A DNA stretch of 64,000 nt, taken from positions 1 through 64,000 of the IMG/VR virus record IMGVR_UViG_3300045988_116708. The stretch is one strand, 5' to 3'. How positions within the stretch are numbered: position 1 is the first letter of the stretch; each line of letters opens with the position of its first letter. Below are positions 7,151 to 51,570 of the stretch, in pieces. The notes below the pieces were generated by a model. The model worked only from the letters and a program-made list of their open reading frames with translations. It ran no database searches and had not been told where the DNA came from. Position numbers and translations under genes: made by a program. The stretch comes from a virus.

Positions 7151-7254
7151 TAAGAGTGCAGAGCTAATTGATAAATATTGTAAGAAGCCTTGTGAGTGTG
7201 ATAAAGCAAGACAATGCAGGAAAATTAGTAAGAAACTTAAAAATAAAATTGACA

Positions 7255-7731
7255 ATGAAAACTTTGCAAATCAGTGAACAAAAAGCTAGAGAACTCTACA
7301 AAAGTGGTTCCAGCGAGTTAAAATCTATTTTGGAAGAGTCTTTTGGAAAAGATTTTTTCTCTCAAAAGATAACAGATAGAGTTAAAACCTATGAAGATGC
7401 ATGTCGCGAATTAAGTACCAGTCCTCTTGATGAAAATAAGTTGATGAAACTCGGTCTTACTAAACATGATATTGCTTATCAAAAGTTGGTAACCATTATC
7501 AAGGCCCTTAACGAAGGTTGGGTACCGGATGTATGTGATAGTAGTGTATATAGATGGTACCCGTGGTTCAAGACTAATGGTTCTCCTTCCTCTTTCGCTT
7601 TCGACGGTTCGGATTGCGGTAGTGCGTTTGCGATTGCGGGTAGCGGGTCTCGCCTTTGCTTGAAAAGTAAAGAATTGTCAGAGTATTGTGGTAAACAATT
7701 CATTGACCTTTGGAAACAGTTCATTATTTAA
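7255..7731 (+). CDS. DGR variable protein 1 (target gene carrying VR1)
   Basis: ATG at 7255 of track ORF 7168..7731. Paralogous to 7747..8127 (ALNEGWxPD, YPWF, SSFAF, AIAGSGSRL, QFIDxWK). VR1 lies near the C-terminus. Confidence 0.85.
   Translation: MKTLQISEQKARELYKSGSSELKSILEESFGKDFFSQKITDRVKTYEDACRELSTSPLDENKLMKLGLTKHDIAYQKLVTIIKALNEGWVPDVCDSSVYRWYPWFKTNGSPSSFAFDGSDCGSAFAIAGSGSRLCLKSKELSEYCGKQFIDLWKQFII
7582..7655 (+). repeat. DGR variable repeat VR1
   Basis: 74 bp. It differs from the TR at 13 positions, all of them TR adenines. Confidence 0.9.
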
Positions 7732-7746
7732 CTAAATATTATCATC

Positions 7747-8127
7747 ATGAAAAAAGAAAATAAAAAGATTACAGAGTTAGTCAAAACGTTTGAGGATGCC
7801 CGTAAGCTGACCGGCAGACCGGATGTTCCTGACTTTTCCAATCTTCCCACTGACATGCGCAAACATTTTGAGGCACAGTATAAGATGATTGTAATTGCAG
7901 AAGCCCTTAACGAGGGATGGATTCCTGATTGGGATAATTATAATGAATATAAGTATTATCCTTGGTTTGAAATGTCTCCTTCCTCTTTCGCTTTCCTCGG
8001 TTCGGCTTGCGATGGTGCGATTGCGATTGCGGGTAGCGGGTCTCGCCTTAAATTTCGGACACGCGAGCTTGCAAATTATGCAGCAGAGCAATTTATTGAT
8101 ATTTGGAAAGATATCCAGATAGGATAG
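7747..8127 (+). CDS. DGR variable protein 2 (target gene carrying VR2)
   Basis: 126-aa paralogue of the upstream target; VR2 lies near the C-terminus. Confidence 0.85.
   Translation: MKKENKKITELVKTFEDARKLTGRPDVPDFSNLPTDMRKHFEAQYKMIVIAEALNEGWIPDWDNYNEYKYYPWFEMSPSSFAFLGSACDGAIAIAGSGSRLKFRTRELANYAAEQFIDIWKDIQIG
7975..8048 (+). repeat. DGR variable repeat VR2
   Basis: 74 bp. It differs from the TR at 14 positions, all of them TR adenines. Confidence 0.9.
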
Positions 8128-8150
8128 GATATAAAGGTTGCCTGTCCTTG

Positions 8151-8224
8151 TCTCCTTCCTCTTTCGCTTTCAACGATTCGAATTACGATAATGCAAATGC
8201 GAATGCAGGTAGCAGGTCTCACCT
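8151..8224 (+). repeat. DGR template repeat (TR)
   Basis: 74-bp non-coding copy with 18 adenines, giving the AAY-rich frame SSFAFNDSNYDNANANAGSRSHL. It lies directly upstream of the RT. Confidence 0.9.
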
Positions 8225-8331
8225 ATGTTACAATAATCCAATGGGCAGGGGCCTCACCTCTTGGTGGAAAATAACAATTCAAACGGTGTCGGTAGGGCTT
8301 ATCCGAAGACTCTTATTAGAAACAAAGGCTT

Positions 8332-9318
8332 ATGAAACGATTTGGAAATTTATACTATCGTATTTGTGACATTGATAACCTTTACCTTGCATATACCAAA
8401 GCAAGAAAAGGCAAGGGAAATACTTATGGGGTCATTCAATTTGAGAAAGAATTGGATGACAACATAAATACCCTTCATAAGGAACTGTCAGAAGGTAAAT
8501 ACGTTACTTCTGAATATCAAACTTTTATCATACATGATCCTAAGGAACGTGAAATATACCGGCTCCCTTTCCGTGATCGTGTTGTTCATCATGCGATAAT
8601 GAATATCCTCGAAGATATATGGACTCCGATATTCATTTCACATACTTATTCATGTATTAAGGGCAGAGGTATCCATGGAGTAATGAAACATCTAAAGAAA
8701 GATTTGAAAGATATCCAAAATACAAAATATTGCCTGAAAATGGATATTCGTAAATACTATCCGTCAATAGATCATTTGATACTTAAGAATATTGTCCGAA
8801 AGAAGGTTAAGGACAAACGTCTTCTTAAGTTACTCGACGGTATTATTGATTCTGCTCCAGGAATACCTATCGGTAATTATCTTTCTCAGTTCTTTGCAAA
8901 CTTGTATCTATCTTACTTTGACCACTGGCTTAAAGAGGAAAGACGTATAAAGTATTATTATAGATATGCTGATGATATGGTAATACTTTCATCAAACAAA
9001 GAAGAGCTTCACTCTCTGCTTGGAGATATAAAATCATATCTGCATAATAAGCTTCATTTAAATTTAAAAGACAATTATCAAATATTCCCGGTTGATAATA
9101 GAGGAATTGACTTTGTTGGCTATGTTTTCTTTCACACTCATATTTTAATGCGGAAAAGTATCAAGAAAAACTTCTGTAGAAAAGTAGCAGTGTTGAACAA
9201 AAAGAAAACTACATCCTGCAACTGCAAGATAGCACTTTGTTCATGGATGGGATGGGCAAAACATTGTAATTCAAAGCACTTAATTAAAACTGTAATCAAA
9301 AATGAAAAGGTTTTCTGA
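8332..9318 (+). CDS. DGR reverse transcriptase
   Basis: Contains PKEREIYRLPFRDRVVHHAI, LKMDIRKYYPSIDH, GIPIGNYLSQFFANLYL and YYRYADDMVIL. These RT motifs 1-5 include the DGR-typical GxxxSQ. Confidence 0.9.
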   Translation: MKRFGNLYYRICDIDNLYLAYTKARKGKGNTYGVIQFEKELDDNINTLHKELSEGKYVTSEYQTFIIHDPKEREIYRLPFRDRVVHHAIMNILEDIWTPIFISHTYSCIKGRGIHGVMKHLKKDLKDIQNTKYCLKMDIRKYYPSIDHLILKNIVRKKVKDKRLLKLLDGIIDSAPGIPIGNYLSQFFANLYLSYFDHWLKEERRIKYYYRYADDMVILSSNKEELHSLLGDIKSYLHNKLHLNLKDNYQIFPVDNRGIDFVGYVFFHTHILMRKSIKKNFCRKVAVLNKKKTTSCNCKIALCSWMGWAKHCNSKHLIKTVIKNEKVF

Positions 9319-12745: not shown

Positions 12746-12770
12746 AAAGCCAGATATAATGTCTGGCTTT
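12746..12770. terminator. Bidirectional intrinsic terminator between convergent units
   Basis: AAAGCCAGA-tataatg-TCTGGCTTT forms a 9-bp stem. It is flanked by an A-run and a T-run. Confidence 0.7.
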
Positions 12771-13188
12771 ATTTATCAATTAGTCCGAACCTTTTTAATT
12801 CGGCTTTATTGATTCGAGAGTTACTCTTTATCTTATCACAAACAAGGCTAATATCTTCCTCATCCAATGTGCCTAAACTAGTACTTTTAAGAAGTTTGTT
12901 CTTCTTTACTATTTTAATTGAAGAGCAATCTATGTAGCTATCATATGAAAGGAAATCATAACTTTCCCCTTTTATAAGATGTTGCATTGCTCGTACATTA
13001 AGTGGCAGATTCATATTAATAAAGGAGTTAAAGATGACACCACCATAAACGTTTCCATCGTTATCAAAGCCAAGTACTACAAAAAATTTATCACGACTGG
13101 TATCTCCGGGTTTGGGTACTACTCCATTGGCTTTGTTCATCGTAACAAAAAATACATCCCCTATCTTAATTTCCGAAGGTTTCATCAA
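12769..13188 (-). CDS. Putative toxin partner of the Panacea antitoxin (possibly a PemK/MazF-like SH3 barrel)
   Basis: 139 aa; overlaps the upstream gene. GDVFFV...DKFFVVLG is weakly PemK-like. Confidence 0.45.
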   Translation of the reverse strand: MMKPSEIKIGDVFFVTMNKANGVVPKPGDTSRDKFFVVLGFDNDGNVYGGVIFNSFINMNLPLNVRAMQHLIKGESYDFLSYDSYIDCSSIKIVKKNKLLKSTSLGTLDEEDISLVCDKIKSNSRINKAELKRFGLIDK

Positions 13189-13693
13189 ATGCTATTGAAT
13201 CATTAATATATTTTACAAGTTCATCATTAGCTCCTCCATCAAGGGCAATATCCCCCGGATCAATAACATGATTCCCCTTTTTGTCTCTCGCTTTTTGCCA
13301 ACAAGTTGTATGAGAAGTTTTTTCCAACTCCTTAAAACTCATTTTCCCGTATTTGGAAATACATAAATCTAAAGTGTCTTTATCATATTGTGAAAGATAA
13401 TCCATATTCGGTTCACGTTTAGATAATAGATAGTAATCTACAACATGAACATCATCTGTCATTTTTGAAAGAACGCTTTTTTGCCCCCGTATTGTACTAT
13501 ACAAAATTGTTGGTACTGGTCCATGGGGAAGAGCACAAAACTTATCTGCTATCATCAGTTGTCCCCAGTCAACCAAGCTGCGTTGATTGGCAAAATATAA
13601 TATCTTGAACAAATGATAATAGTCCATACCCCCAGTTTTATTAAGGATATAAAGTACTATTTCTATGATTTTTTGTTGTTCAAATTTTGTCAT
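13166..13693 (-). CDS. Panacea (DUF4065/SocA-like) domain antitoxin
   Basis: YYHLFKILYFANQRSLVDWGQLMIADKFCALPHGPVPTILY matches the DUF4065 core (KLLYFA...GPV). An alternative GTG start lies at 13714. Confidence 0.7.
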   Translation of the reverse strand: MTKFEQQKIIEIVLYILNKTGGMDYYHLFKILYFANQRSLVDWGQLMIADKFCALPHGPVPTILYSTIRGQKSVLSKMTDDVHVVDYYLLSKREPNMDYLSQYDKDTLDLCISKYGKMSFKELEKTSHTTCWQKARDKKGNHVIDPGDIALDGGANDELVKYINDSIAFDETFGN

Positions 13694-13726
13694 TTTTTTA
13701 GGGTTCTTGGTCACTAATTATATAAC

Positions 13727-27259: not shown

Positions 27260-27826
27260 ATGAGGTTATCAATAAAACAGGAAAATTTTTGTAATTACTA
27301 CATTGAATGTGGGAACGCATCCGAATCTTATCGTCGTGCGTATTCTTGTAAGAATATGAAAGACAACACTGTTAATCGGAAAGCGATTGAACTGTTAAAT
27401 AACGGCATGATTACGGCAAGGGTCAAAGAATTGCAATTAGAACAAAAGGAGAAGTCAGATATAACTAAAGAGCGTATCTTACAGGAATTATCCGGTATTG
27501 CATTTTCTACCATCGCCGATATGCATAATACTTGGATTGAACGTAAGGAATTTGACCGGCTTTCTAAGAAAGAAAAATCATCAATAAAAAGTATTTCTAC
27601 AAAAGTGCTTAAAAAGAATATCGGCACAAGAGATGAGCCGGAAATAGTGGATGTTGAGTATGTGAAGATAGAGTTGTACGATAAAATAAAAGCTATTGAG
27701 CGTATCTGCAAGATGCTTGGTTTTGATTCACCAACAGAAGTGAATATCAACAAGGACAGTGAGGATATGTCCCGTGAAGATATGTTGGATGAATTAGAAC
27801 GTCTGGAAAAATTGCGTGAGGAATAA
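27260..27826 (+). CDS. terS: Terminase small subunit (Terminase_2 family)
   Basis: LSIKQENFCNYYIECGNASESYRRAY... is the typical N-terminal motif. The gene precedes TerL. Confidence 0.8.
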   Translation: MRLSIKQENFCNYYIECGNASESYRRAYSCKNMKDNTVNRKAIELLNNGMITARVKELQLEQKEKSDITKERILQELSGIAFSTIADMHNTWIERKEFDRLSKKEKSSIKSISTKVLKKNIGTRDEPEIVDVEYVKIELYDKIKAIERICKMLGFDSPTEVNINKDSEDMSREDMLDELERLEKLREE

Positions 27827-29292
27827 TGAGATTAACTGATGCACAGGTAAAAAGAAAGCTTGAGTTGGAGCGTCTGCTATTGAAAATGGATGCTCCCAAT
27901 ATGTTTTATAAATTTATTCCGTATATCAATGCGTCATATACCAGTATGTGGTTCCACAAGGTTATTGCTGATCATTGCCAAATGCTTTTTGATGGTAAAA
28001 TCAAGAATTTAATGGTATTCATGCCGCCACAAAATGGGAAATCTGAAATTGTATCTCGTAATTTCCCAGCGTTTGCTTTAGGCTGTAATCCTGATCTTAA
28101 AATTGTCGGTACATCGTATAGTGCTAATCTTGCAGAACAATTCTCGCGTTCTATTCAGCGTATTATAGATAGCAAGGAGTATCAAGCTATATTCCCCAAT
28201 ACTTATCTTAATGGAAGTAATGTCAGGACGTGTGTAAAAGGTTATTTGCGCAATGTGGATATATTTGAGACGGTGGGGCATAAAGGTTTTTATAAGGCGG
28301 TTGGTGTCGGTGGTTCTTTGACGGGAACGCCAGTGGATATAGCCATTATTGATGACCCGGTAAAGGATGCAATGGAAGCCTATTCTGTTACTTACAGAGA
28401 GCGCGTGTGGGATTGGTATACTTCAGTGTTGCTTACACGTCTTCATAATGAAAGCAAACAGCTTTTTATTATGACGAGATGGCATGACGATGACCTTGCC
28501 GGACGCATATTGAAGAAGGAACCTGACAAATGGACTGTATTGTCTGTTCCTGCTATACGCGAGACACTTGAGGATGGGAATGATTTTGACCCTCGCAAGG
28601 TAGGCGAGGCATTGTGGCCGCAACGTCATTCTTTGGAAAGGCTTCTTGACGCACAAAAACGTTCGCCAAGATTCTTTTCTGCGTTATACCAGCAGCATCC
28701 CACCGTTGAAGGAGGTAATATTATCAAGGAAGCGTGGTTTGGTCATATTTCTGCTTTTGACTTTAAGAAAAAGCTTAAATATGAGCCTATAATCTTTTTT
28801 GTCGATACGGCTTATACGGAAAAAACGAGCAACGATCCGACTGGCATACTCGGTTCCTGCATGATTGGTAATGATATATATATTGTGTGTGGAAAGAAGG
28901 TGAATATGAAGTTCCCTGAATTGTGCCGTTTTCTTCCTTCCTATGTACGTGACAATGGATATGGAAGTGATAGTACGGTAAGGATTGAACCGAAAGCAAA
29001 TGGTCTTTCCGTAATAGACCAATTACGCGAAACAACCAACCTGAGTGTTGTTGCCACTTCTTCACCAAAAGACAGCAAAGAAACAAGGTTAAACGCTGCC
29101 TCTCCTTTTGTTGAGAGTGGACGTGTGTATCTTGTGGATGGAGATTGGAATGAAATGTTTATTGATGAGGTGTGCGGTTTTCCTGCAAAACCTCATGATG
29201 AGTTTGTGGATTTGCTTTGCTACTCGATAGATTATCATCACAGAAGCTTTAATGAATTGAGTGACGAGGAGATTCTAAGGGATTTTCTTTGA
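27826..29292 (+). CDS. terL: Terminase large subunit
   Basis: 488 aa with a Walker A-like PPQNGKS, a Walker B-like IAIIDDP and a C-terminal nuclease region. Confidence 0.85.
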   Translation: MRLTDAQVKRKLELERLLLKMDAPNMFYKFIPYINASYTSMWFHKVIADHCQMLFDGKIKNLMVFMPPQNGKSEIVSRNFPAFALGCNPDLKIVGTSYSANLAEQFSRSIQRIIDSKEYQAIFPNTYLNGSNVRTCVKGYLRNVDIFETVGHKGFYKAVGVGGSLTGTPVDIAIIDDPVKDAMEAYSVTYRERVWDWYTSVLLTRLHNESKQLFIMTRWHDDDLAGRILKKEPDKWTVLSVPAIRETLEDGNDFDPRKVGEALWPQRHSLERLLDAQKRSPRFFSALYQQHPTVEGGNIIKEAWFGHISAFDFKKKLKYEPIIFFVDTAYTEKTSNDPTGILGSCMIGNDIYIVCGKKVNMKFPELCRFLPSYVRDNGYGSDSTVRIEPKANGLSVIDQLRETTNLSVVATSSPKDSKETRLNAASPFVESGRVYLVDGDWNEMFIDEVCGFPAKPHDEFVDLLCYSIDYHHRSFNELSDEEILRDFL

Positions 29293-34893: not shown

Positions 34894-36300
34894 ATGCCCA
34901 TGGATGAAATAACCGCTATATTAGACAGTACCCGACCTTTTGATAATATTATCAACGACTTAAAAGAGAAATCAGTCTGTGTCCCCTCATGGGATAAACT
35001 TATCAAAGACTATGAACCAACGATGCACGACATAGTTACTGATACTGTTACTCGTCAAAACAAGGTAAGGTCTGATGGTACGGTAGAGCAAGCTTCACGT
35101 ATCTATGTTGGTCTTGAAAAGCTTCTAACGAAGCGAATAACAGAGTTCATGTATTCTATTCCGGTAAAACGTATATATCACAATATAGAGGGTAATCCTA
35201 CCAGACAACAAATAGCAAAAGCGATCGAAGCAATATACAAGTATGCTCGTATTGATAGTGAGAATATTAAGCGAGGTAATGCTTACTTTGCATCATGTGA
35301 AGTGTTCACTATTTGGTACACAGTTGAGAGCCCCAATACTCTATATGGTTTTACAAGTAGATATAAACTAAAATGTAAGACCTACTCACCAATGGACGGT
35401 GTTAAGCTATATCCTTTACTTGATGAACTTGGTGATATGATCGCAATGTCTTTTGAATACACAAAAAAGGTCAAAAATGAACAAATTACTTTTTTTGAGA
35501 CATATACAGCAAACATGCATTATAAGTGGAAACAGGAGGGTAGCGGATGGGAATTAGTCAAATCAGAACCGGTTGCTATTCTAAAAATACCAGGAGTCTA
35601 CGCCTATTGTTCGGTACCTATTTATCACGGGCTTTCCTATATCAGAAAAGAAATAGAATATACCCTTTCACGCAATAGCGATGTAATCGCGTATAATTCC
35701 GCTCCTATACTAAAAATAGCTGGTGGGATAAAGGGTAGTGAGAATAAAGGAGAAAGTCGTAGAGTTTATCGCGTAGAACAAAATGGGGATGTAGCCTATG
35801 TTTCGTGGGCACAATCTATCGAGGCATTAAAATACCATGTTGACACTTTAGTCAAATTGTTTTGGTCACAATCACAAATGCCAGATATTTCTTTTGAAAA
35901 CATGAAATCTCTCGGTAATATCGGATTTGATGCAAGGCAGACTTTACTTACTGACGCTCATTTAAAGGTTGGAGACGAAAGCGGAGCGTGGATAGAAGCA
36001 TTTGAACGCGAATGTAGTGTAATTAAGGCCTTCTTGAAAATGATGAATGTTACGTGGAAAGGTGAAGTAGATAATGTTGAAGTTGAGCATGTTATTACTC
36101 CGTTTATCCAAAATGATGAAAAGTCAGAAATAGAGAAGTGGGTTACAGCCAGTGGGGGGAAAGCGGTTGTCAGTCAATTAGAGGCCATCAAGAACTTGGG
36201 CATTTCTACCGATCCGCAAGAGACTCTCTCTCAAATTCAAAAAGAAGATGAAACTGCTTCTAGAATCAGAGTGAGCAACATATTTGAACAATCAGAATAA
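34894..36300 (+). CDS. Portal protein
   Basis: 468 aa. It is the first gene of the head operon and is followed by MuF, scaffold and capsid genes. Called from size and synteny. Confidence 0.65.
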   Translation: MPMDEITAILDSTRPFDNIINDLKEKSVCVPSWDKLIKDYEPTMHDIVTDTVTRQNKVRSDGTVEQASRIYVGLEKLLTKRITEFMYSIPVKRIYHNIEGNPTRQQIAKAIEAIYKYARIDSENIKRGNAYFASCEVFTIWYTVESPNTLYGFTSRYKLKCKTYSPMDGVKLYPLLDELGDMIAMSFEYTKKVKNEQITFFETYTANMHYKWKQEGSGWELVKSEPVAILKIPGVYAYCSVPIYHGLSYIRKEIEYTLSRNSDVIAYNSAPILKIAGGIKGSENKGESRRVYRVEQNGDVAYVSWAQSIEALKYHVDTLVKLFWSQSQMPDISFENMKSLGNIGFDARQTLLTDAHLKVGDESGAWIEAFERECSVIKAFLKMMNVTWKGEVDNVEVEHVITPFIQNDEKSEIEKWVTASGGKAVVSQLEAIKNLGISTDPQETLSQIQKEDETASRIRVSNIFEQSE

Positions 36301-36708: not shown

Positions 36709-37266
36709 GTGGAAAATATTGAATTTAATGAAAAAGAAGGTTTGTATGTAGCTGATTTTGAATCAAAAGGCAAGTGTGTGATTCAGATTGATAATAATAC
36801 GGCAGATAATCTTGTTTTTTATCGTTACATGCCAGATATGGAGCCAAGCTCATACGATAAGTTGGATTTTGATTGTAGAAAGAGGATATTTGATTTGGAT
36901 ATACCTATTGGAATGATGATACGTATTATTAGTAAGACGGAAGTAAAAGCCGCCAAAATGATTGTCATACAACAACCAAACGGTAGCAGTTCTTCTATTA
37001 CAGAAGTAGAAGCGACTATTGATAATAATACTGGTATTCCATCTGTGAACGTTTCTACAGAAGATGGTAAATTACAGTTTGACTTTAAAAATCTAAAAGG
37101 GACCAAGGGGGATAATGGGACAAATGGCAGTGATGGAGAAAAAGGTGCGACTGGCGCAAAAATTATGTCCATTGAATTGAGTATTACCGGAACGTCTATT
37201 TCAGGTACGGCGCATTTAGATGATGAAAGTACAGCGCCTATTTCTGGTACATATAATCCAGCATAA
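36709..37266 (+). CDS. Hypothetical protein with a short collagen-like G-X-Y segment
   Basis: GTG start. [21 protein letters not shown] gives 7 triplets (37099-37161). Confidence 0.55.
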
Positions 37267-37291
37267 ACATATAATTTTAAATAATATAAAG

Positions 37292-38008
37292 ATGAAAAAG
37301 TACATTGGAACAAAACAAATTGAAGCGGAACCTATAACAATGGGTGAAGCATTTGAAAAAGGTTTATTGCAAGTAGGCAGAGTACCCACCGAATCCGAAA
37401 AGGACAAAAATGGGTATCGTGTAAGGTACAAGGACGGTTACGAAAGCTGGTCTCCTGCCGAACCGTTTGAGGAAGCATATAAATGCGCTGACACTTTCCT
37501 TGACCGTTTGCAGATTGAGCATGATGATCTTGTAGAAAAGTATGACAAGTGCGAAAAGTTTGTAGATTCGGATAAGTTCCGTGAAATTGTACAAGAGGAT
37601 TATCCGGCATTTCTGTTATCATTGCAACGAAATGTGATGAATAGATATGGAAGTATTATTGAACAAAGAATGTCCATAGCTAAAGGAGAAACAAGCATTA
37701 CAACACTTCCAAGAATGTCCTTTGGAGATGCAATCGAAGCGTTGAAGTTCGGTTTTGCCATCCGTAGAAAAGGCTGGAACGGTAAAGGTCTGATGGTATT
37801 CAAACAAATACCAGCGCATATCGAAAGTGATATTATCCCCAAGATGCAATCACTTCCGCAATCAGCAAAAGACCTTATTCTGAAAGGCAAGGGCTTCATA
37901 GACTATACAAGCCAGTGTCTTATCTACAACGAAAATACTGGTCGTGCTGATTCATGGGTTCCGTCTATCAGTGATGTATTTGCCGAAGATTGGGAGATTG
38001 TACAATAA
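37292..38008 (+). CDS. DUF2829 (Tad2-like) domain protein with an N-terminal extension
   Basis: C-terminal MSFGDAIEALKFGFAIRRKGWNGKGLMVF...DVFAEDWEIV. ATG at 37292 of track ORF 37220..38008. Confidence 0.7.
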   Translation: MKKYIGTKQIEAEPITMGEAFEKGLLQVGRVPTESEKDKNGYRVRYKDGYESWSPAEPFEEAYKCADTFLDRLQIEHDDLVEKYDKCEKFVDSDKFREIVQEDYPAFLLSLQRNVMNRYGSIIEQRMSIAKGETSITTLPRMSFGDAIEALKFGFAIRRKGWNGKGLMVFKQIPAHIESDIIPKMQSLPQSAKDLILKGKGFIDYTSQCLIYNENTGRADSWVPSISDVFAEDWEIVQ

Positions 38009-39179: not shown

Positions 39180-40796
39180 ATGGCAAAACCTAAAATTCCA
39201 AATCAGAAAAAGAAGTATCAAGAACTTAACAGTCGGATAAATAGGTATGTCGTTCTTGTTGAGCAGATATACGACACACTGAATTTGGACGCCGCCAAAG
39301 CTGTTTCACGTACGGAATATTCCTCTGATAGCAATAAACCGTTTAAATGGTCCGATTACCCTCAAACTAAAAAACAAATTGACGACATACAAAGGCATTT
39401 CGTAGAAGATATAAACGCAATTATCTATCGTGGTACGACCGAAGAATGGAAAAATAGTAATGAAGCACAGGATTTGATAGCAAACAGAGTATTAAAAGCA
39501 TATAACGCACAAGTTGATAGAGAGAAATATAAAGTTTTGTATCAAGTAAATTCTGATGCTCTGAAAGCATTTCAAAACCGGAAGGATAAAGGATTCAATA
39601 TATCGGCAAAACTCTGGCAGCAATCTATGATCTACAAAGAGGAATTGGAGGCTGCGATCTCATGCGCTATTCAAAAAGGAACCAGCGCTGTTACGTTGAG
39701 TAAGCAAATATCTCAATACTTACTTGATTTTCCATCACTGCAAAAAGATTATAAAGACAGATACGGAAGTGCTGAACATATACAAGATTGTGAATACAGA
39801 TCTATCCGCCTAGCCCGTTCGGAGATAAACATGGCTTATCGAACATCCGAAAATGAACGTTGGAAGCAAATGGATTTCGTAGTAGGATATGAAATTAAAT
39901 TAAGTTCCTCTCATCACAACCGTATGCCACATGGAGATATTTGTGATACACTTGCCGGAAAATATCCTAAAGATTTCAGCTGGACAGGATGGCACCCGAA
40001 CGACTTATGCTATAAAGTCCCTATCCTCAAAACAGAAGAAGAATTCTGGGAATGGGATGGACTGAGCGATGTTTCTACAGAAAGTATTAATGAAGTAAAG
40101 GATGTTCCTGACGAATTTAAAAAATGGGTACTTGACAACCAACAAAAGATTGAGAAAGCGCGGGAAAGAAACACCTTACCTTATTTTTTGAGAGATAACA
40201 AATCAATTGTTCAGAATATAAATACTGAGAATTCAGCTAAAGAGCTTGTTAATCGTGCTTCTTTAGTTGGGAAGGAGGTACAAAGTTTAGCAGAATCCAT
40301 CGCTAAAAATAATAAAGGATTTGTAACTCCAATCAATTACAAAAGCATTTCATCAATAACAAGAAAAGCGACAACGGAGGGTATAACTCCATACGATATA
40401 AAAGACGCAGTTAGGACGACAATCATAGTTCCCAAATCACAAATAGATCAAGTCTTGAACGAACTATCTGAAAACGATTCGTTTGTGCGACTGAAAAGAC
40501 AAAAGCCGGAATCATTTATGGGATATAGTGGCAATATAGTTAATATTCAAACATCTAACGGATTAATTGCTGAGATTCAAGTTAATACAGACCGTATGAT
40601 TTATGCCAAAGAAAAACCGGAAGACGCAAAACGAATTCTTGGAGAAAAACGTTGGAAGAATATACAAAATCAAACAGGTATGAAGGGGGGGCTGGGGCAT
40701 AAATATTATGAAGAATGGCGAGTATTAGACAAAGCTGATAAAAAGGCGCAAAAAATAGTTGAAAAATCAATCGAATATTATAGTCATTTCCAATAA
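39180..40796 (+). CDS. MuF/SPP1-gp7 head-morphogenesis protein fused to a C-terminal RelA/SpoT-like (RSH/toxSAS-type) nucleotidyltransferase domain
   Basis: The MuF core is EYRSIRLARSEINMAYR and WHPNDLC. The C-terminal region (about 40287-40796) has YKSISSITRKA, IKDAVRTTIIV, GYSGNIVNIQTSNGLIAEIQVNT and GHKYYEEWR. These match the alarmone-synthetase motif order. Confidence 0.65.
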   Translation: MAKPKIPNQKKKYQELNSRINRYVVLVEQIYDTLNLDAAKAVSRTEYSSDSNKPFKWSDYPQTKKQIDDIQRHFVEDINAIIYRGTTEEWKNSNEAQDLIANRVLKAYNAQVDREKYKVLYQVNSDALKAFQNRKDKGFNISAKLWQQSMIYKEELEAAISCAIQKGTSAVTLSKQISQYLLDFPSLQKDYKDRYGSAEHIQDCEYRSIRLARSEINMAYRTSENERWKQMDFVVGYEIKLSSSHHNRMPHGDICDTLAGKYPKDFSWTGWHPNDLCYKVPILKTEEEFWEWDGLSDVSTESINEVKDVPDEFKKWVLDNQQKIEKARERNTLPYFLRDNKSIVQNINTENSAKELVNRASLVGKEVQSLAESIAKNNKGFVTPINYKSISSITRKATTEGITPYDIKDAVRTTIIVPKSQIDQVLNELSENDSFVRLKRQKPESFMGYSGNIVNIQTSNGLIAEIQVNTDRMIYAKEKPEDAKRILGEKRWKNIQNQTGMKGGLGHKYYEEWRVLDKADKKAQKIVEKSIEYYSHFQ

Positions 40797-40820
40797 AAAT
40801 CACTATCTTTACATATAAAA

Positions 40821-41048
40821 ATGAACCAGAAGGAATTATATAATAAATTACAGTCAGGCGAAACGGTTTATTTACTTGACGATTTTGAAGAAGCTGTTAT
40901 CCGTTTATATTTCGATAACGGCCAAACAAAATCATATATAAAACATCATGGACGTAATGAAATAGAAATTCCGCAATCCGATGATACAGTGTGTGATATA
41001 ATTCTTGGAGGAAAAGAGATTTCAAAATCAGAATATGACAAATACTAG
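40821..41048 (+). CDS. Hypothetical 75-aa protein between synthetase and hydrolase
   Basis: Acidic small ORF; its stop overlaps the next start. Confidence 0.5.
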   Translation: MNQKELYNKLQSGETVYLLDDFEEAVIRLYFDNGQTKSYIKHHGRNEIEIPQSDDTVCDIILGGKEISKSEYDKY

Positions 41049-41466
41049 TACTTTATTAGAAAAAGCTCTTCAAATAGCAACTGATGCGCATCTTTATCAA
41101 GTTGACAAAGCTGGGGTACCTTATATTTTCCATCCTATCCGTGTCTCAAACAGATGTTCTACTGATGACGAAAGGATTGTTGCTTTGCTGCACGATACAA
41201 TAGAAGATACCGAAGTTACCGCTGAATATTTACTTATGGAAGGGTTTCCTCGTAATATAGTAGATGCTATACTTTCTGTCACTCGCAACGAGGATGAAAA
41301 CTATGAAGATTTCATAAAACGCTCTAGGCTTAATCCTATAGGAAGACAAGTAAAACTACATGATTTAGAAGACAACATGGATATAACACGTTTGAATGAA
41401 CTTACAGAAAAGGATCTTTACAGATTGAACAAATACATAAAAGCATATAAATATCTTAAAGAATAA
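41035..41466 (+). CDS. HD-domain small alarmone hydrolase (SAH, RelA/SpoT hydrolase-type)
   Basis: AHLYQVDKAGVPYIFHPIRV and ALLHDTIEDT match the H...HD...ED motifs. ATG at 41035 of track ORF 41005..41466. Confidence 0.75.
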   Translation: MTNTSTLLEKALQIATDAHLYQVDKAGVPYIFHPIRVSNRCSTDDERIVALLHDTIEDTEVTAEYLLMEGFPRNIVDAILSVTRNEDENYEDFIKRSRLNPIGRQVKLHDLEDNMDITRLNELTEKDLYRLNKYIKAYKYLKE

Positions 41467-41553
41467 TCGCTGATGTACAATTACATTCAGTTTCACGGCA
41501 CGAAGTACAAGATTACTCTCGTGCCGTGCGTTTATTATGATAGTTTAACATTG

Positions 41554-41615
41554 AAAGTGGCGTTTAAAACGTCACTTTTGCTACCTTTGTGTCAGAAGCG
41601 TATGAAGATGTACGC
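41554..41615 (+). promoter_or_regulatory. Promoter with AAGTG-N13-CACTT operator (site d) and leader hairpin
   Basis: AAAGTG-N13-CACTTT at 41554-41578. Box TACCTTTG at 41582-41589. Hairpin GCGTA-TGAAGATG-TACGC at 41598-41615. Confidence 0.6.
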
Positions 41616-41758
41616 CACAGAACTTGTCGTGTTGTGATTTGCTTCAATTTAGCACGATTGAACGAAACTCATTGCTCTAATGTTTAGTAAAGTTCTAAGC
41701 GAATAGTCTGCTGGCATACGTGCTACGCAGACTATTTTTGTAATTAAAACATTATACA

Positions 41759-42911: not shown

Positions 42912-44249
42912 ATGAATGAATCATTATTTATTGAATTTGTAAAAAAAATATGGCCCAAATTGAGCCTATATGTGAAAGAAAAGACCAATGGAACAAATAA
43001 GAATTTGACCTATCTTCACAAAACTATGCTTACCAGAGTATATTCTCCTGATCAAAAATGGGAAGGTACTTCTGCTAACACTACTTATGTAGCAGCGGAT
43101 ATGGTAGCTATGGATTCTCCTTTGTCTCCCAAGAAACGTGACTCTATTGCACGTTCTAGTGGTGAATTGCCTAAAGTTGGTATTAAAAAGATTCTGAGAG
43201 AAACTCAGATCAACGCTATTAATATCATGAAAGCACATTTGTCTAATGCCACTACAGAGGAAGCGCAAAAATCTCTCAAAAACAGAATCTTTTCTCGATT
43301 AACTGATGACGGAACCGCATGTTCTGTTGGTATTGATGAAAGGAATGAAGCTAATTTCCTTACTGGGCTGTCTGATGGGGTTATTATTGTTGAAGGTGAT
43401 GATGATAAAAATTCCGGTCTCGGACTTCGTGTAAATTATGGTTATTTGCCAGAACATAGTTTTGGTGTTGTTACTACCGGAGAAGTAACAGGTGATGATA
43501 TTGAAAGAGTTATAGGTAAAGCCAACGATGACGGGAATAGCATTTCTGTTATCATGTTAGCGTTGTCTACCTATAACAAAATGCGTCAATCTCAATGGGC
43601 TAAGGAATTGGTGGCAAGTTATCGAGGGCAAACCTTTGATAATGAAACAAAGTTGCCTGTTCCCACTTCTACGTTGTTTGATGAAGCATTTTCTGATCAA
43701 TATAATGGCATTTCATTCTTTAAGATTGATCGTTCTGTCACTTATGAAAAGAATGGTAAAAGAGTTTCTTATAAGCCGTGGAATGCAAATAAACTTATAT
43801 TCCTTCCTTCTGCTGACAATGTAGGTTCTTTTGTATGGGGAACTTTGGCTGAATCTACTAACCCTGTCAAGGGAGTAGAATATACCATTGTTGATGAATA
43901 TAAGCTGATTAGCCGTTACTCCAAAACAGACCCGTTGCAGGAATTTACGAATGGGCAGGCTCTTTGTTTGCCGGTTATTGAGAATGTAGACCAGATTTAT
44001 TCATTGGATATTCTGGAAGCTCAAACAGTAGATACAACGAAAGAATCTGAGGATTCTACTGATGTAAAGATTACGATTTGGGGAGTAACTTACAAGAAGC
44101 CAGAATTTGTGACAGAATACAATAAAATCGCTGGTAAAAACTTGACTTCCACCGTTTCCGATGATAAACTTATCGCGGCAGTCAACAGATTGAGTGATGC
44201 AGACGAAGCATCGTTGAAAAAAGCGGTTGAATCCCATAAAGCAACATAA
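42912..44249 (+). CDS. Major capsid protein
   Basis: 445 aa. Called from its position after scaffold/decoration and before the connector genes. Confidence 0.6.
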   Translation: MNESLFIEFVKKIWPKLSLYVKEKTNGTNKNLTYLHKTMLTRVYSPDQKWEGTSANTTYVAADMVAMDSPLSPKKRDSIARSSGELPKVGIKKILRETQINAINIMKAHLSNATTEEAQKSLKNRIFSRLTDDGTACSVGIDERNEANFLTGLSDGVIIVEGDDDKNSGLGLRVNYGYLPEHSFGVVTTGEVTGDDIERVIGKANDDGNSISVIMLALSTYNKMRQSQWAKELVASYRGQTFDNETKLPVPTSTLFDEAFSDQYNGISFFKIDRSVTYEKNGKRVSYKPWNANKLIFLPSADNVGSFVWGTLAESTNPVKGVEYTIVDEYKLISRYSKTDPLQEFTNGQALCLPVIENVDQIYSLDILEAQTVDTTKESEDSTDVKITIWGVTYKKPEFVTEYNKIAGKNLTSTVSDDKLIAAVNRLSDADEASLKKAVESHKAT

Positions 44250-46430: not shown

Positions 46431-46501
46431 GCGGAGATGGTGTAATGGTTGCATATATATCATCCAGATATCAGGTTACGGTTCAAATCCGTATCTCCGC
46501 T
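46431..46501 (+). tRNA. Phage-encoded tRNA-like gene, best read as tRNA-Gly(UCC) with an atypical anticodon loop
   Basis: Acceptor GCGGAGA/TCTCCGC. D-arm GTGT-AATGGTT-GCAT. T-arm TACGG-TTCAAAT-CCGTA. Discriminator T. Anticodon arm TATAT-CATCCAG-ATATC, with A at position 33 and a T-C mismatch at the stem top. Confidence 0.55.
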
Positions 46502-46578
46502 CTGTTTTTTGAGAATCTGATTTGTTGTTCATAATTTAATGTCGGTTGTCTGTGAAGATAGCCGATAAAAAATAATTG

Positions 46579-48927: not shown

Positions 48928-50322
48928 TTAGTATTGTTTGTATTGCTTAGATACCTTATATTCTTTTCCTGCATAATTAAATGTCCAAATAAATATAGGC
49001 AAATAAACATATCTCATTTGACCGCCTAAATTTGTTGTTTGTCCGGCTGCTAAAGCGCCCAATTTTGATGCATCATCTGTATATAATACAATATTTTCAC
49101 TCAATCCATCTTTTACCTCAAACTTAGTAAGAGATATCTCTTTAGAACTTGTGTTGGTTATGTAACAATACACAGACCCTGTTATATAACCATTAATGGA
49201 TACAATAGATGAAGAGCTTATACCCAGATTCATAAAATCGGAAATCTCAGCTGATACAACTTCGCAAGTGGCAGTATGGGCACCATCTTCTGTAGTTATT
49301 GTTATTGTAGAAGTACCTTCCTTCAATGCTGTAACCTTTCCATTATTGTCTACAGAAACAGTGTTGGGTGCAGAACTGCTAAATTTTACATTTTTATTCT
49401 CTGCATTTTCAGGTAAAATAGAATATGTCAATGTATAGCTTTCTCCATTCAGAATCTTAACTGAAGATTCTGTAAACTGAACTCCTTTTACCGAAAAAGG
49501 CAAAACATTCACAGTACACTGCGCTTTAAAATTCCCATCATTAGTAGTGGCAATTATGTTACATGTACCTTTTGCCAATGCAGTCACCAATCCGTCTTCT
49601 ACCTTTGCAATATTAGGATCGCTGGAAGACCATTTGATACTTTTGTCCTTTGCATTTTCAGGAGATACAGTAGCTGTTAGAGTAAATGACTTGCCGGCTT
49701 CAATAGATTTAGTTGTTTCATTCAATGTAACTCCTGTAACCTTAATAGGATTCACTTTAACAACACATTTGGCGTAGGTATCACTTCCTTTGACTTTGAC
49801 TGTAATAGTACATTCACCATCGGAAACGGCTGTAACCTCGCCATCTGCATTAACCGTTGCTATAGTTTTATCCGAAGACTCCCACTCCACTTCTTTGTTG
49901 GTAGTATTTTCAGGTTCTATCGTATACTCCAAACGGAATGATTCACCGGTAGTCATCGTCTTCTCACTCTCAGATAGTTTGATATCAGTTGCTTCAATTG
50001 GAGTTACAGTGACCTTACATATATCTTTCAATTTTAGATTAAAAGAAGAAACTGATATAGTAACCTCTCCAACAGACTTTCCATAAACAATACCGTTTTC
50101 AACAGTTGCAATTGTTTCATCAGAAGAATTCCATTCATATTCGGGAGCGGGTAAATCTGCTGGCGAATGGCTGACAGTGAGAGTTATTTTCTCACCAACC
50201 TTTACTGAAGCTTCACTTTTAGAAATTTCGATAGATTGTACAACAGGTTTGTCATCATCGCCACAAGAAGATAATGATAGAATAGAAACAATAGATAGTA
50301 ACAATAAAATAGTTCGTTTCAT
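48928..50322 (-). CDS. Surface lipoprotein with five tandem Big_2 (bacterial Ig-like) domains and an unknown C-terminal domain
   Basis: Signal/lipobox LSLSSCG. There are five repeats of the pattern V.VG....L.....P.......W.SSD..IATV...G.VTA...G...I. Confidence 0.8.
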   Translation of the reverse strand: MKRTILLLLSIVSILSLSSCGDDDKPVVQSIEISKSEASVKVGEKITLTVSHSPADLPAPEYEWNSSDETIATVENGIVYGKSVGEVTISVSSFNLKLKDICKVTVTPIEATDIKLSESEKTMTTGESFRLEYTIEPENTTNKEVEWESSDKTIATVNADGEVTAVSDGECTITVKVKGSDTYAKCVVKVNPIKVTGVTLNETTKSIEAGKSFTLTATVSPENAKDKSIKWSSSDPNIAKVEDGLVTALAKGTCNIIATTNDGNFKAQCTVNVLPFSVKGVQFTESSVKILNGESYTLTYSILPENAENKNVKFSSSAPNTVSVDNNGKVTALKEGTSTITITTEDGAHTATCEVVSAEISDFMNLGISSSSIVSINGYITGSVYCYITNTSSKEISLTKFEVKDGLSENIVLYTDDASKLGALAAGQTTNLGGQMRYVYLPIFIWTFNYAGKEYKVSKQYKQY

Positions 50323-50512: not shown

Positions 50513-50709
50513 TATCTTTGTGGTGCTAACAACTTATAGGAGCGGCAAACTCCTATGGCTTCATCATTGGAGCTATTTTTTTGCCAGTACATATAACAAG
50601 TAGTATCATAATTTAAGATATTGCGCACGAACGGTGGGGTAACAGAAATGTCCCCAAACTAAATTCCTATGAGTTTGTTAGCAGCCGTGAACGTGCGCAT
50701 TTTTTTGTT
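50513..50709 (+). promoter_or_regulatory. Second -7 box (TATCTTTG) and about 190 nt of structured leader ending in a terminator-like hairpin
   Basis: Long-range pairing of 50524-50540 with 50666-50683. Hairpin ATAGGAG/CTCCTAT. Stem GCGCACG (50623-50629) / CGTGCGC (50692-50698) plus T7, ending 3 nt before the ATG. Confidence 0.45.
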
Positions 50710-51570
50710 ATGCTAACAAACTCGATTCAAGTTCTAAAACAAACAGAATTGTGTGGACGGCAATTCACAGTTTACGGAACGGCAGAAAATCCATTGTTCT
50801 TAGCCAAAGAAGTAGCAGAGTGTATTGAACACAGTAACATCACCGTAATGCTTCAAACAATAGATGAAGAAGAAAAGGTGAAAATCACCCCTAAACAATC
50901 CTTAGGGGACTTAGTTAACTACAAAGAATACAACTTCTTAACTGAAGATGGCTTATACGAAGTCCTCATGCAATCCCGCAAACCTATCGCAAAGCAATTC
51001 AAGAAGGGAGTTAAACAAATCCTTCACGAAGTACGAACTATTGGCGGTTACATCGCCACCAAGCAAGACGACACCCCCGAAGAAATCATGGCACGTGCGC
51101 TAACCATCGCACAAGCTACCCTTGCCAAAAGAGAGGAACGGTTAAAGCAGCTTGAAGCTCAAGCCGAACAACAGCAAGTCACCATCGAGATTCAGACAGA
51201 GGAAATCAAGAAAGCAGCACCGAAAGTCAGCTACTACGACAACCACTTGCAGAGTGTGAACACGCAGACAAGCACCCAAGTAGCCAAGCAGATTGGCTTG
51301 GATGCGGAGAAGCTTCACAAGAAACTGAAAGAAATCGGAATCATCTACAAGCAATCGGGGCAATGGCTCCTTCATGCTCCTTATTCCACTTGGGAGCTGC
51401 ATTCCACCCGTACACAGACGTACACACGTTCGGACGGTTCGACAGGAACAAGTGTATATACGGTATGGACTACCAAGGGCGTGCGTTTCATCATCGCATT
51501 GTACGAGAATGATTGGAATGTGAAGAAATCCATTAAGCAGATAAAGGGCGAGATGAATCCGGCCGCATAA
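50710..51570 (+). CDS. Bro-N / KilAC (ANT) antirepressor
   Basis: N-terminal FTVYGTAENPLFLAKEVAECIEHSN is a Bro-N pattern. C-terminal KVSYYDNHLQSVNTQTSTQVAKQIGL is a KilAC pattern. Confidence 0.7.
   Translation: MLTNSIQVLKQTELCGRQFTVYGTAENPLFLAKEVAECIEHSNITVMLQTIDEEEKVKITPKQSLGDLVNYKEYNFLTEDGLYEVLMQSRKPIAKQFKKGVKQILHEVRTIGGYIATKQDDTPEEIMARALTIAQATLAKREERLKQLEAQAEQQQVTIEIQTEEIKKAAPKVSYYDNHLQSVNTQTSTQVAKQIGLDAEKLHKKLKEIGIIYKQSGQWLLHAPYSTWELHSTRTQTYTRSDGSTGTSVYTVWTTKGVRFIIALYENDWNVKKSIKQIKGEMNPAA

Follow-up and report, generated by a model that had tools for sequence, protein, structure and literature searches.

The stretch of DNA considered here (the window) comprises 64,000 nucleotides of a viral sequence, positions 1 to 64,000 of IMG/VR record IMGVR_UViG_3300045988_116708, and is most likely, as judged from its sequence, a prophage of Bacteroides fragilis. 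At positions 39180 to 41466, it bears three co-directional genes encoding proteins of 538, 75, and 143 amino acids (aa), which very probably form an orthologue, in a Bacteroides prophage, of the published Apk2–BcTis1–Aph1 toxin/bi-immunity cassette. A sequence-only reading had described the first protein as a MuF/SPP1-gp7 head-morphogenesis core fused at its C-terminus to an RSH-type (RelA/SpoT-like) synthetase toxin, and the last one as an HD-domain small alarmone hydrolase (SAH) acting as an antidote. The three open reading frames (ORFs) have been recovered where that reading placed them, all the motifs it quoted are present at the assigned residues of the 538-aa and HD proteins, and each of the three assignments has been borne out by the profile and structure matches given below, of which those to phrog_7625, 6OX6_A, and 7SMG exceed by far what chance would produce. 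The genes and domains of the cassette are as follows:

39180..40796, plus strand: apk2, predicted to encode a 538-aa MuF-Apk2 polymorphic toxin that combines a head-morphogenesis domain with an adenosine 3′-pyrophosphokinase (ORF list, identity to B. caccae-type Apk2)
39180..40214, plus strand: putative MuF/SPP1-gp7-like N-terminal domain, residues ~1–345 (PHROG profiles)
40245..40784, plus strand: Apk2tox, predicted Tas1/Apk1-like (p)ppApp synthetase domain, residues 356–535 (match to PDB 6OX6_A)
40821..41048, plus strand: tis1-like (iapK-type) gene for a predicted 75-aa non-enzymatic immunity protein (Tis1_ImmP, identity to BcTis1)
41035..41466, plus strand: aph1, for a predicted 143-aa HD-domain (p)ppApp hydrolase serving as an enzymatic immunity protein (match to PDB 7SMG)

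The genes are tightly packed: a gap of 24 nucleotides (nt) separates the apk2 stop from the tis1-like start, and the aph1 ATG lies inside the tis1-like ORF with an overlap of 14 nt. The 143-aa product is counted from this ATG, while an alternative TTG start at 41005 would give 153 aa.

The reference operon was found in a temperate phage of B. caccae and has been studied genetically, biochemically, and structurally (Ahmad et al., PNAS 2023, PMC10083569). Its genes are BACCAC_01148, encoding the MuF-fused BcTas1 that was renamed Apk2, BACCAC_01147 (BcTis1), and BACCAC_01146 (BcSAH, renamed Aph1). The toxin domain of B. caccae Apk2 inhibits growth in E. coli, lowers ATP, and makes pApp, ppApp, and pppApp; BcTis1 or Aph1 alone protects the cells partially, and both together protect them fully. 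Aph1 acts on (p)ppApp but not on (p)ppGpp, its structure at 2.3 Å has the HD fold, and residues D24, R96, D116, R119, K133, and Y134 constitute its (p)ppApp-specific signature (PMC10083569).

For comparison with the window, we used a locus carrying a B. caccae-type protein (L001), whose HD protein is identical to the sequence of PDB 7SMG. The two loci share the same three genes in the same order, with the same spacing and the same lengths (538/75/143 aa), at the same head-module site downstream of an SPP1-type portal gene, and every catalytic and specificity residue checked is kept in the window. Protein identity is 92.4% for Apk2, 89.3% for the Tis1-like protein, and 93.0% for Aph1, and DNA identity is 90%. 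Purifying selection is indicated by the codon differences in apk2, of which 118 are synonymous, against 41 that are non-synonymous. The window holds an allelic variant present in B. fragilis-type prophages, its three proteins bearing 41, 8, and 10 amino-acid substitutions, respectively; in addition, it has ~2.9 kb of extra small genes (Tad2-like and others) between portal and apk2, and its spacer after aph1 is 32 nt longer. These differences from the published locus are modest and leave the classification unchanged. With 92–93% identity to characterized proteins, the identification is decided, and the cassette is one already known since its publication in 2023.

The toxin domain occupies the last ~190 aa of the 538-aa protein. 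Its synthetase motifs follow one another as YKSISSITRK (residues 387–396), DAVRTTIIV (409–417), GYSGN (448–452), AEIQVNT (464–470), and HKYYEEWR (507–514). Residues 356–535 match chain 6OX6_A, the Tas1/Apk1 of Pseudomonas, with E = 4.5e-26 (179 residues aligned, 36% of them identical), and this is the sole solved structure matched by the domain sequence; the PDB chains of CapRel, FaRel2, and RelQ gave no match at E ≤ 10. D409, R412, E465, and Q467 align with D327, R330, E382, and Q384 of Tas1, of which R330, E382, and Q384 belong to the published list of ATP-site residues (PMC12691689), and the syn2 aspartate, here D409, is the residue mutated to obtain catalytically null Apk2 variants (PMC12226406). 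The loss of catalytic residues, named by the sequence-only reading as a sign that it was mistaken, is not seen among the residues checked in the window. The C-terminal domain is accordingly classed as a predicted Tas1/Apk1-like (p)ppApp synthetase with its catalytic and ATP-site residues kept.

As to the product, the sequence-only reading had listed (p)ppGpp, (p)ppApp, and pyrophosphorylated tRNA, and only the second of these has held, the orthologue being a producer of pApp, ppApp, and pppApp. It is very improbable that the domain makes (p)ppGpp or pyrophosphorylates tRNA in the manner of PhRel2, FaRel2, or CapRel. What speaks for such an activity, apart from its mention in that reading, is a weak match to the generic Pfam RelA_SpoT profile (E = 0.0017, 19 bits, with the cutoff at 27). 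Against it stand the exclusive structural match to Tas1/Apk1, the 94% identity of the domain to an enzyme with demonstrated (p)ppApp products, and the (p)ppApp-specific signature of the partner hydrolase; moreover, syn2 reads “RTT” and syn4 “VN”, as in the Apk type, and not “AVR” and “IR”, as in the RSH type (types according to PMC12226406). Likewise, among the subfamilies proposed for the C-terminal profile check, the Tas1-like one has been confirmed and the toxSAS ones (FaRel, PhRel, CapRel) have not, since membership in them is not indicated by the sequence and PADLOC yielded no toxSAS/CapRel-type or other defence model at E ≤ 0.01. On the strength of the PADLOC result, a reading of the locus as a defence system was dropped.

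Two different predicted immunity proteins are encoded downstream. The 75-aa protein matches Pfam Tis1_ImmP with E = 9.5e-5 (22.9 bits, under the curated 27-bit cutoff), and its sole PDB match is the Tis1 chain 6OX6_B with E = 0.44. Being a small Tis1 homologue encoded directly downstream of the toxin, it conforms to the Tis1/IapK type. The sequence-only reading had foreseen a single antidote, the HD hydrolase; the hydrolase has been retained in this role, and the 75-aa ORF is now assigned as a second one, a predicted Tis1-like non-enzymatic immunity protein. The 143-aa HD protein bears HPIRV at residues 33–37 and LLHDTIEDT at residues 51–59 and matches PDB 7SMG, the “(p)ppApp hydrolase” structure of Aph1, with E = 1e-84. 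All six residues of the Aph1 signature, together with the HD metal-binding motif, are identical to those of 7SMG, which identifies the protein, by its sequence, as a predicted monofunctional (p)ppApp hydrolase of the Aph1 family. In clustering at 90% identity, the cluster containing this protein is represented by a 236-aa protein (P0151) that is Tad2-like/crAss001_48 by Pfam and not an HD hydrolase; the probable cause is either an artefact of the clustering or a member of chimeric sequence.

The N-terminal half is related to MuF head proteins, with LARSEINMAYR at residues 211–221 and WHPNDLC at residues 271–277. The 538-aa protein matches the PHROG head-morphogenesis families phrog_7625 (E = 2e-86) and phrog_1657 (2.7e-25), as well as phrog_115, “minor head protein” (5.3e-14). 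The best PHROG of SPP1 gp7 is the same phrog_115 (1.5e-66), and gp7 matches phrog_7625 too (1.7e-5). Besides, gp28 of the Riemerella phage RAP44, annotated as “SPP1 gp7 family”, is 30% identical to the 538-aa protein (E = 5e-42). Direct confirmation by Pfam and NCBIfam failed, so the link to MuF has been made via the PHROG profiles common to SPP1 gp7; the MuF homology is thus supported at the profile level and by the position of the gene near that of the portal. Furthermore, the locus has the layout of MuF polymorphic toxins (Jamet et al. 2017): muf lies among the head genes of a temperate phage, the toxin part at its C-terminal end is variable, and a small ORF for immunity follows.

No observation contradicts the identification of the locus as an Apk2–Tis1–Aph1 cassette; its weaker points are the following. 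Pfam Phage_Mu_F (PF04233) does not match the N-terminal domain even at E ≤ 10, and TIGR01641 gives only a non-significant E = 0.31 with the 538-aa protein. In control searches, PF04233 recognized SPP1 gp7 (7e-33) and Mu gp30, at 1e-32 to 1e-33, but failed also on two annotated homologues, gp28 of RAP44 and a minor capsid protein from Porphyromonas; the Bacteroidota MuF clade that includes RAP44 gp28 is too divergent for this profile. In the toxin domain, K353 and N370 of Tas1 are unmatched in the ungapped alignment (F435 and I453 here), and the active B. caccae enzyme carries the same residues as the window at these positions. The domain differs from that of L001 by 11 substitutions (94.3% identity), none of which falls in any syn motif, and of the 10 substitutions in Aph1, seven are clustered at residues 16–29, around D24. 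Finally, for every Apk2, packaging in the virion and injection remain a hypothesis (PMC11699363, PMC12226406).

Related systems differ from the cassette in delivery, partners, or chemistry. Tas1/Apk1–Tis1 of P. aeruginosa PA14, an effector of the type VI secretion system (T6SS; PDB 6OX6), has a homologous synthetase domain and a small immunity protein that is likewise homologous, but its delivery domain is PAAR instead of MuF, and it has no hydrolase partner. In E. coli, Tas1 is bactericidal whereas Apk2 of B. caccae is bacteriostatic, and BcTis1 gives no protection against Tas1 (PMC10083569). The same tripartite architecture as in the window is found in the Apk2–IapK–Aph1 cassettes of Streptococcus pneumoniae, Mannheimia haemolytica, and Pasteurella multocida prophages (Bartoli et al. 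2023; Paulet et al. 2025, PMC12226406), for which exclusive synthesis of (p)ppApp from ATP has been described, along with one immunity protein that binds specifically and a hydrolase immunity protein that is interchangeable (Bartoli et al. 2023; PMC12226406). These cassettes belong to distant phyla and are divergent in sequence, and none of them is among the near-identical matches found here. The toxSAS modules (FaRel–ATfaRel, CapRel, PhRel; Jimmy et al. 2020, PMC7229694) have toxins of the RSH fold, and FaRel makes (pp)pApp and is neutralized by an SAH-type antitoxin; they are, however, stand-alone cytoplasmic toxin–antitoxin or defence modules without a capsid domain, and no match to them was found here at the sequence level.

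Bxa and other MuF toxins of Bacteroidales (PMC11699363; PMC5576092) are related through the head-protein half: searched with its MuF part, the window protein reaches phrog_16625, “Bxa ADP-ribosyl transferase”, with 5.3e-68. They are likewise accompanied by one enzymatic and one binding immunity protein, but their C-terminal toxin acts as an ADP-ribosyltransferase, with an ADP-ribosylhydrolase for the enzymatic antidote. Another phage, Porphyromonas phage phage005b_ATCC49417 of P. gingivalis, has two adjacent genes (L003, 2926–5771) that look like a MuF toxin and its immunity partner in the manner of Bxa: one codes for a “minor capsid protein” of the MuF type, 591 aa long and extended at its C-terminus, and the other for an ADP-ribosylglycohydrolase.

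Essentially the whole of the 64-kb window is taken up by phage genes, and the cassette is located between the genes for the portal and major capsid proteins. The following features define its surroundings:

27260..29292: terminase subunits
34894..36300, plus strand: portal protein gene of the upstream head module (Pfam SPP1_portal 9.2e-31; phrog_64 1.2e-46)
41467..41758, plus strand: structured conserved spacer from aph1 to the next head-module gene (folding energy, comparison with L001)
42912..44249, plus strand: major head protein gene of the downstream head module (phrog_29 “major head protein” 3.8e-31)

The portal gene is 2.9 kb upstream of apk2. In the interval between them, 1.2 kb upstream of apk2, a plus-strand gene (37220–38008) encodes a protein of 262 aa in which a crAss001_48 domain (5.9e-12) is accompanied by a Tad2-like domain of Thoeris anti-defence (1.7e-18); this protein is absent from the equivalent interval of L001.

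The spacer that follows aph1 comprises 292 nt with a minimum free energy of −92 kcal/mol (z = −5.0 versus shuffles). It is ~97% identical to that of L001 outside the 32-nt indel, as against 90% for the coding DNA; the indel, by which the window spacer is the longer one, corresponds to one hairpin, and TTTTT stands directly after the last hairpin. Rfam has no match in the spacer, and a terminator scan found no plus-strand site. Judging by its folding and conservation, the spacer may contain terminators, a processing site or region, or a small RNA. A sigma-70 promoter scan of the locus, based on a model unsuited to Bacteroides, gave sites no commoner than in shuffled sequence.

Gut Bacteroidales carry the cassette very commonly, with near-identical proteins found on hundreds of contigs, and identical proteins are present in many genomes of B. 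fragilis. The identical 538-aa protein is encoded on about 100 contigs, including chromosome-sized ones of B. fragilis, which indicates a prophage, and in one Caudoviricetes record it is named “Tas1”. Variants nearly identical to it have been recorded from B. ovatus, B. thetaiotaomicron, B. caccae, and Phocaeicola vulgatus. In public genomes, the proteins of the cassette are labelled as hypothetical proteins or, in the case of the hydrolase, as a GTP pyrophosphokinase. Within the phage collection, a near-identity DNA search gave no match, and a search at the protein level returned MuF-domain relatives, one metagenomic toxin-domain match with 45% identity, and nothing else.

Some relatives from B. 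fragilis and metagenomes are 877 aa long (P0029, P0031–35, P0071). They were considered as alleles with an alternative toxin, and this was rejected because the alignment reveals the same MuF-Apk2, with 98% identity on both flanks, interrupted by an intein-like insertion of ~340 aa (P0029 residues ~275–614) that falls precisely within “HPNC”, a motif conserved in MuF. The insertion has features of an intein: it starts with “CYSNDSEVLT”, contains “TPDHNM”, two LAGLIDADG-like motifs, and “VYDLTLERNH”, and ends with “GSN” before Cys; in Pfam, it has no match at 1e-3. The window allele is devoid of the intein at this site (WHPNDLC, 39990–40010) and reads NDLCY versus NCMDY in the predicted spliced product. 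A survey of inteins in minor capsid proteins of actinophages has been published.

Other regions of the window contain further elements. At 7168–9318 (plus strand) lies a diversity-generating retroelement, with a reverse transcriptase gene at 8332..9318 (RVT_1 4e-17) and an A-rich template repeat of 75 nt at 8151–8225; two variable repeats, 7582–7656 and 7975–8049, are located 3′-terminally in ORFs 7168..7731 and 7747..8127, and the repeat copies differ mainly at template adenines. At 12769–13714 (minus strand), in the early region, a protein of 182 aa contains a SocA/Panacea antitoxin domain (1.4e-20) and is followed by an overlapping 139-aa ORF without a family match; this pair may be a toxin–antitoxin system of the PanA type. 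A tRNA-Gly(TCC) gene at 46431–46502 (plus strand) lies within the structural module, and between tail genes, the opposite strand (48928–50322, minus strand) encodes a protein of 464 aa containing four Ig-like domains of the Big_2 family. Finally, at 50619–51570 (plus strand), the Rfam c4-2 antisense RNA (53.9 bits, gathering score 41) is found directly upstream of a Bro-N/ANT antirepressor gene, an arrangement that looks like a c4–ant immunity module of the P1/P7 type.

By orthology, with 92–94% identity, the C-terminal domain of the window toxin would transfer pyrophosphate from ATP to the 3′-OH of AMP, ADP, or ATP, yielding pApp, ppApp, or pppApp, and this synthesis would drain the ATP pool and arrest growth, as with the B. 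caccae orthologue. The 75-aa Tis1-like protein would provide partial protection, possibly by occluding the active site, by analogy with the Tas1–Tis1 structure; Aph1 would hydrolyze (p)ppApp back to AMP, ADP, or ATP, and the two antidotes combined would protect the cell fully. As for the MuF half, it may place a few copies of the fusion in the capsid by the portal, from where the enzyme would enter a new cell along with the DNA, the immunity genes presumably guarding the producing or lysogenic cell. The hypothesis of capsid delivery was put forward by Jamet et al. in 2017 (PMC5576092), who already had RelA-like domains among the MuF toxin domains, and the role of MuF toxins was still described as open in papers of 2023, 2024, and 2025 (PMC10083569, PMC11699363, PMC12226406).

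The explanations proposed for this role differ only in the purpose they ascribe to the cassette. It is possible, though we hold this tentatively, that the cassette is an interbacterial weapon, in which virions set free by spontaneous induction would inject the toxin into non-lysogenic competitors and the tis1-like and aph1 genes of the prophage would shield lysogens. Such a possibility was raised both by Jamet et al. (PMC5576092) and by Ahmad et al. (PMC10083569); the toxin–immunity layout matches those of T6SS and contact-dependent inhibition (CDI) systems, Aph1 protects also against the heterologous Tas1 (PMC10083569), and the abundance of the cassette in gut Bacteroidales fits in as well. 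It agrees less well with the location of the immunity genes in the late head operon, with no separate promoter recognizable in a scan that does not cover Bacteroides-type promoters, with the low copy number of MuF proteins, of which only a few are thought to be present per virion (PMC12226406), and with the action of the B. caccae toxin, which in E. coli is bacteriostatic and not bactericidal. Somewhat more doubtful is a function at phage entry, where the injected enzyme would briefly lower ATP or raise (p)ppApp, slowing the host or blunting nucleotide-dependent defences until newly made immunity proteins switch it off. The fusion to a DNA-pilot/minor head protein beside the portal and the Tad2-like anti-Thoeris gene 1.2 kb upstream in the same module point in this direction, and Ahmad et al. 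suggest that co-injection may aid infection (PMC10083569); on the other hand, the immunity genes belong to the late module, so their early production is hard to explain, and a loss of ATP would harm phage replication too.

In an extended form of the entry function, which we consider unlikely, the full-length MuF-Apk2, packaged at the portal vertex and injected, would serve the phage through a burst of (p)ppApp synthesis and a drain on ATP, disabling, for instance, ATP- or nucleotide-dependent defences and would constitute with the Tad2-like gene a portal-proximal counter-defence island, not an interbacterial weapon. A purely intracellular function without delivery, namely late host shut-off, timing of lysis, or a prophage-stabilizing addiction module, appears quite improbable. 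All the activity data to date do come from expression inside cells, the toxin domain on its own exceeds full-length Apk2 in toxicity (PMC10083569), and SAH-type antitoxins are known from the FaRel toxin–antitoxin module. Nevertheless, this explanation accounts neither for the covalent fusion to a capsid protein nor for the recurrent swaps of toxin domains on the same MuF scaffold (PMC11699363, PMC5576092), and no PADLOC defence or toxSAS model matches the locus.

Since work published in 2023 on a prophage operon of 92% identity had already identified, crystallized, and assayed the system, the locus does not represent a new discovery. Its value lies elsewhere. The matches to RelA_SpoT, Phage_Mu_F, and Tis1_ImmP are all weak or absent, so generic profiles alone would under-call all three parts; the locus shows that each component of such a cassette escapes the standard profiles of Pfam and NCBIfam. 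The window adds one further natural set of alleles, in which substitutions gather close to D24, the specificity residue of Aph1, and, as a member of a common family of gut Bacteroides prophages, it would be a reasonable system in which to study capsid carriage and the role of MuF toxins at entry.

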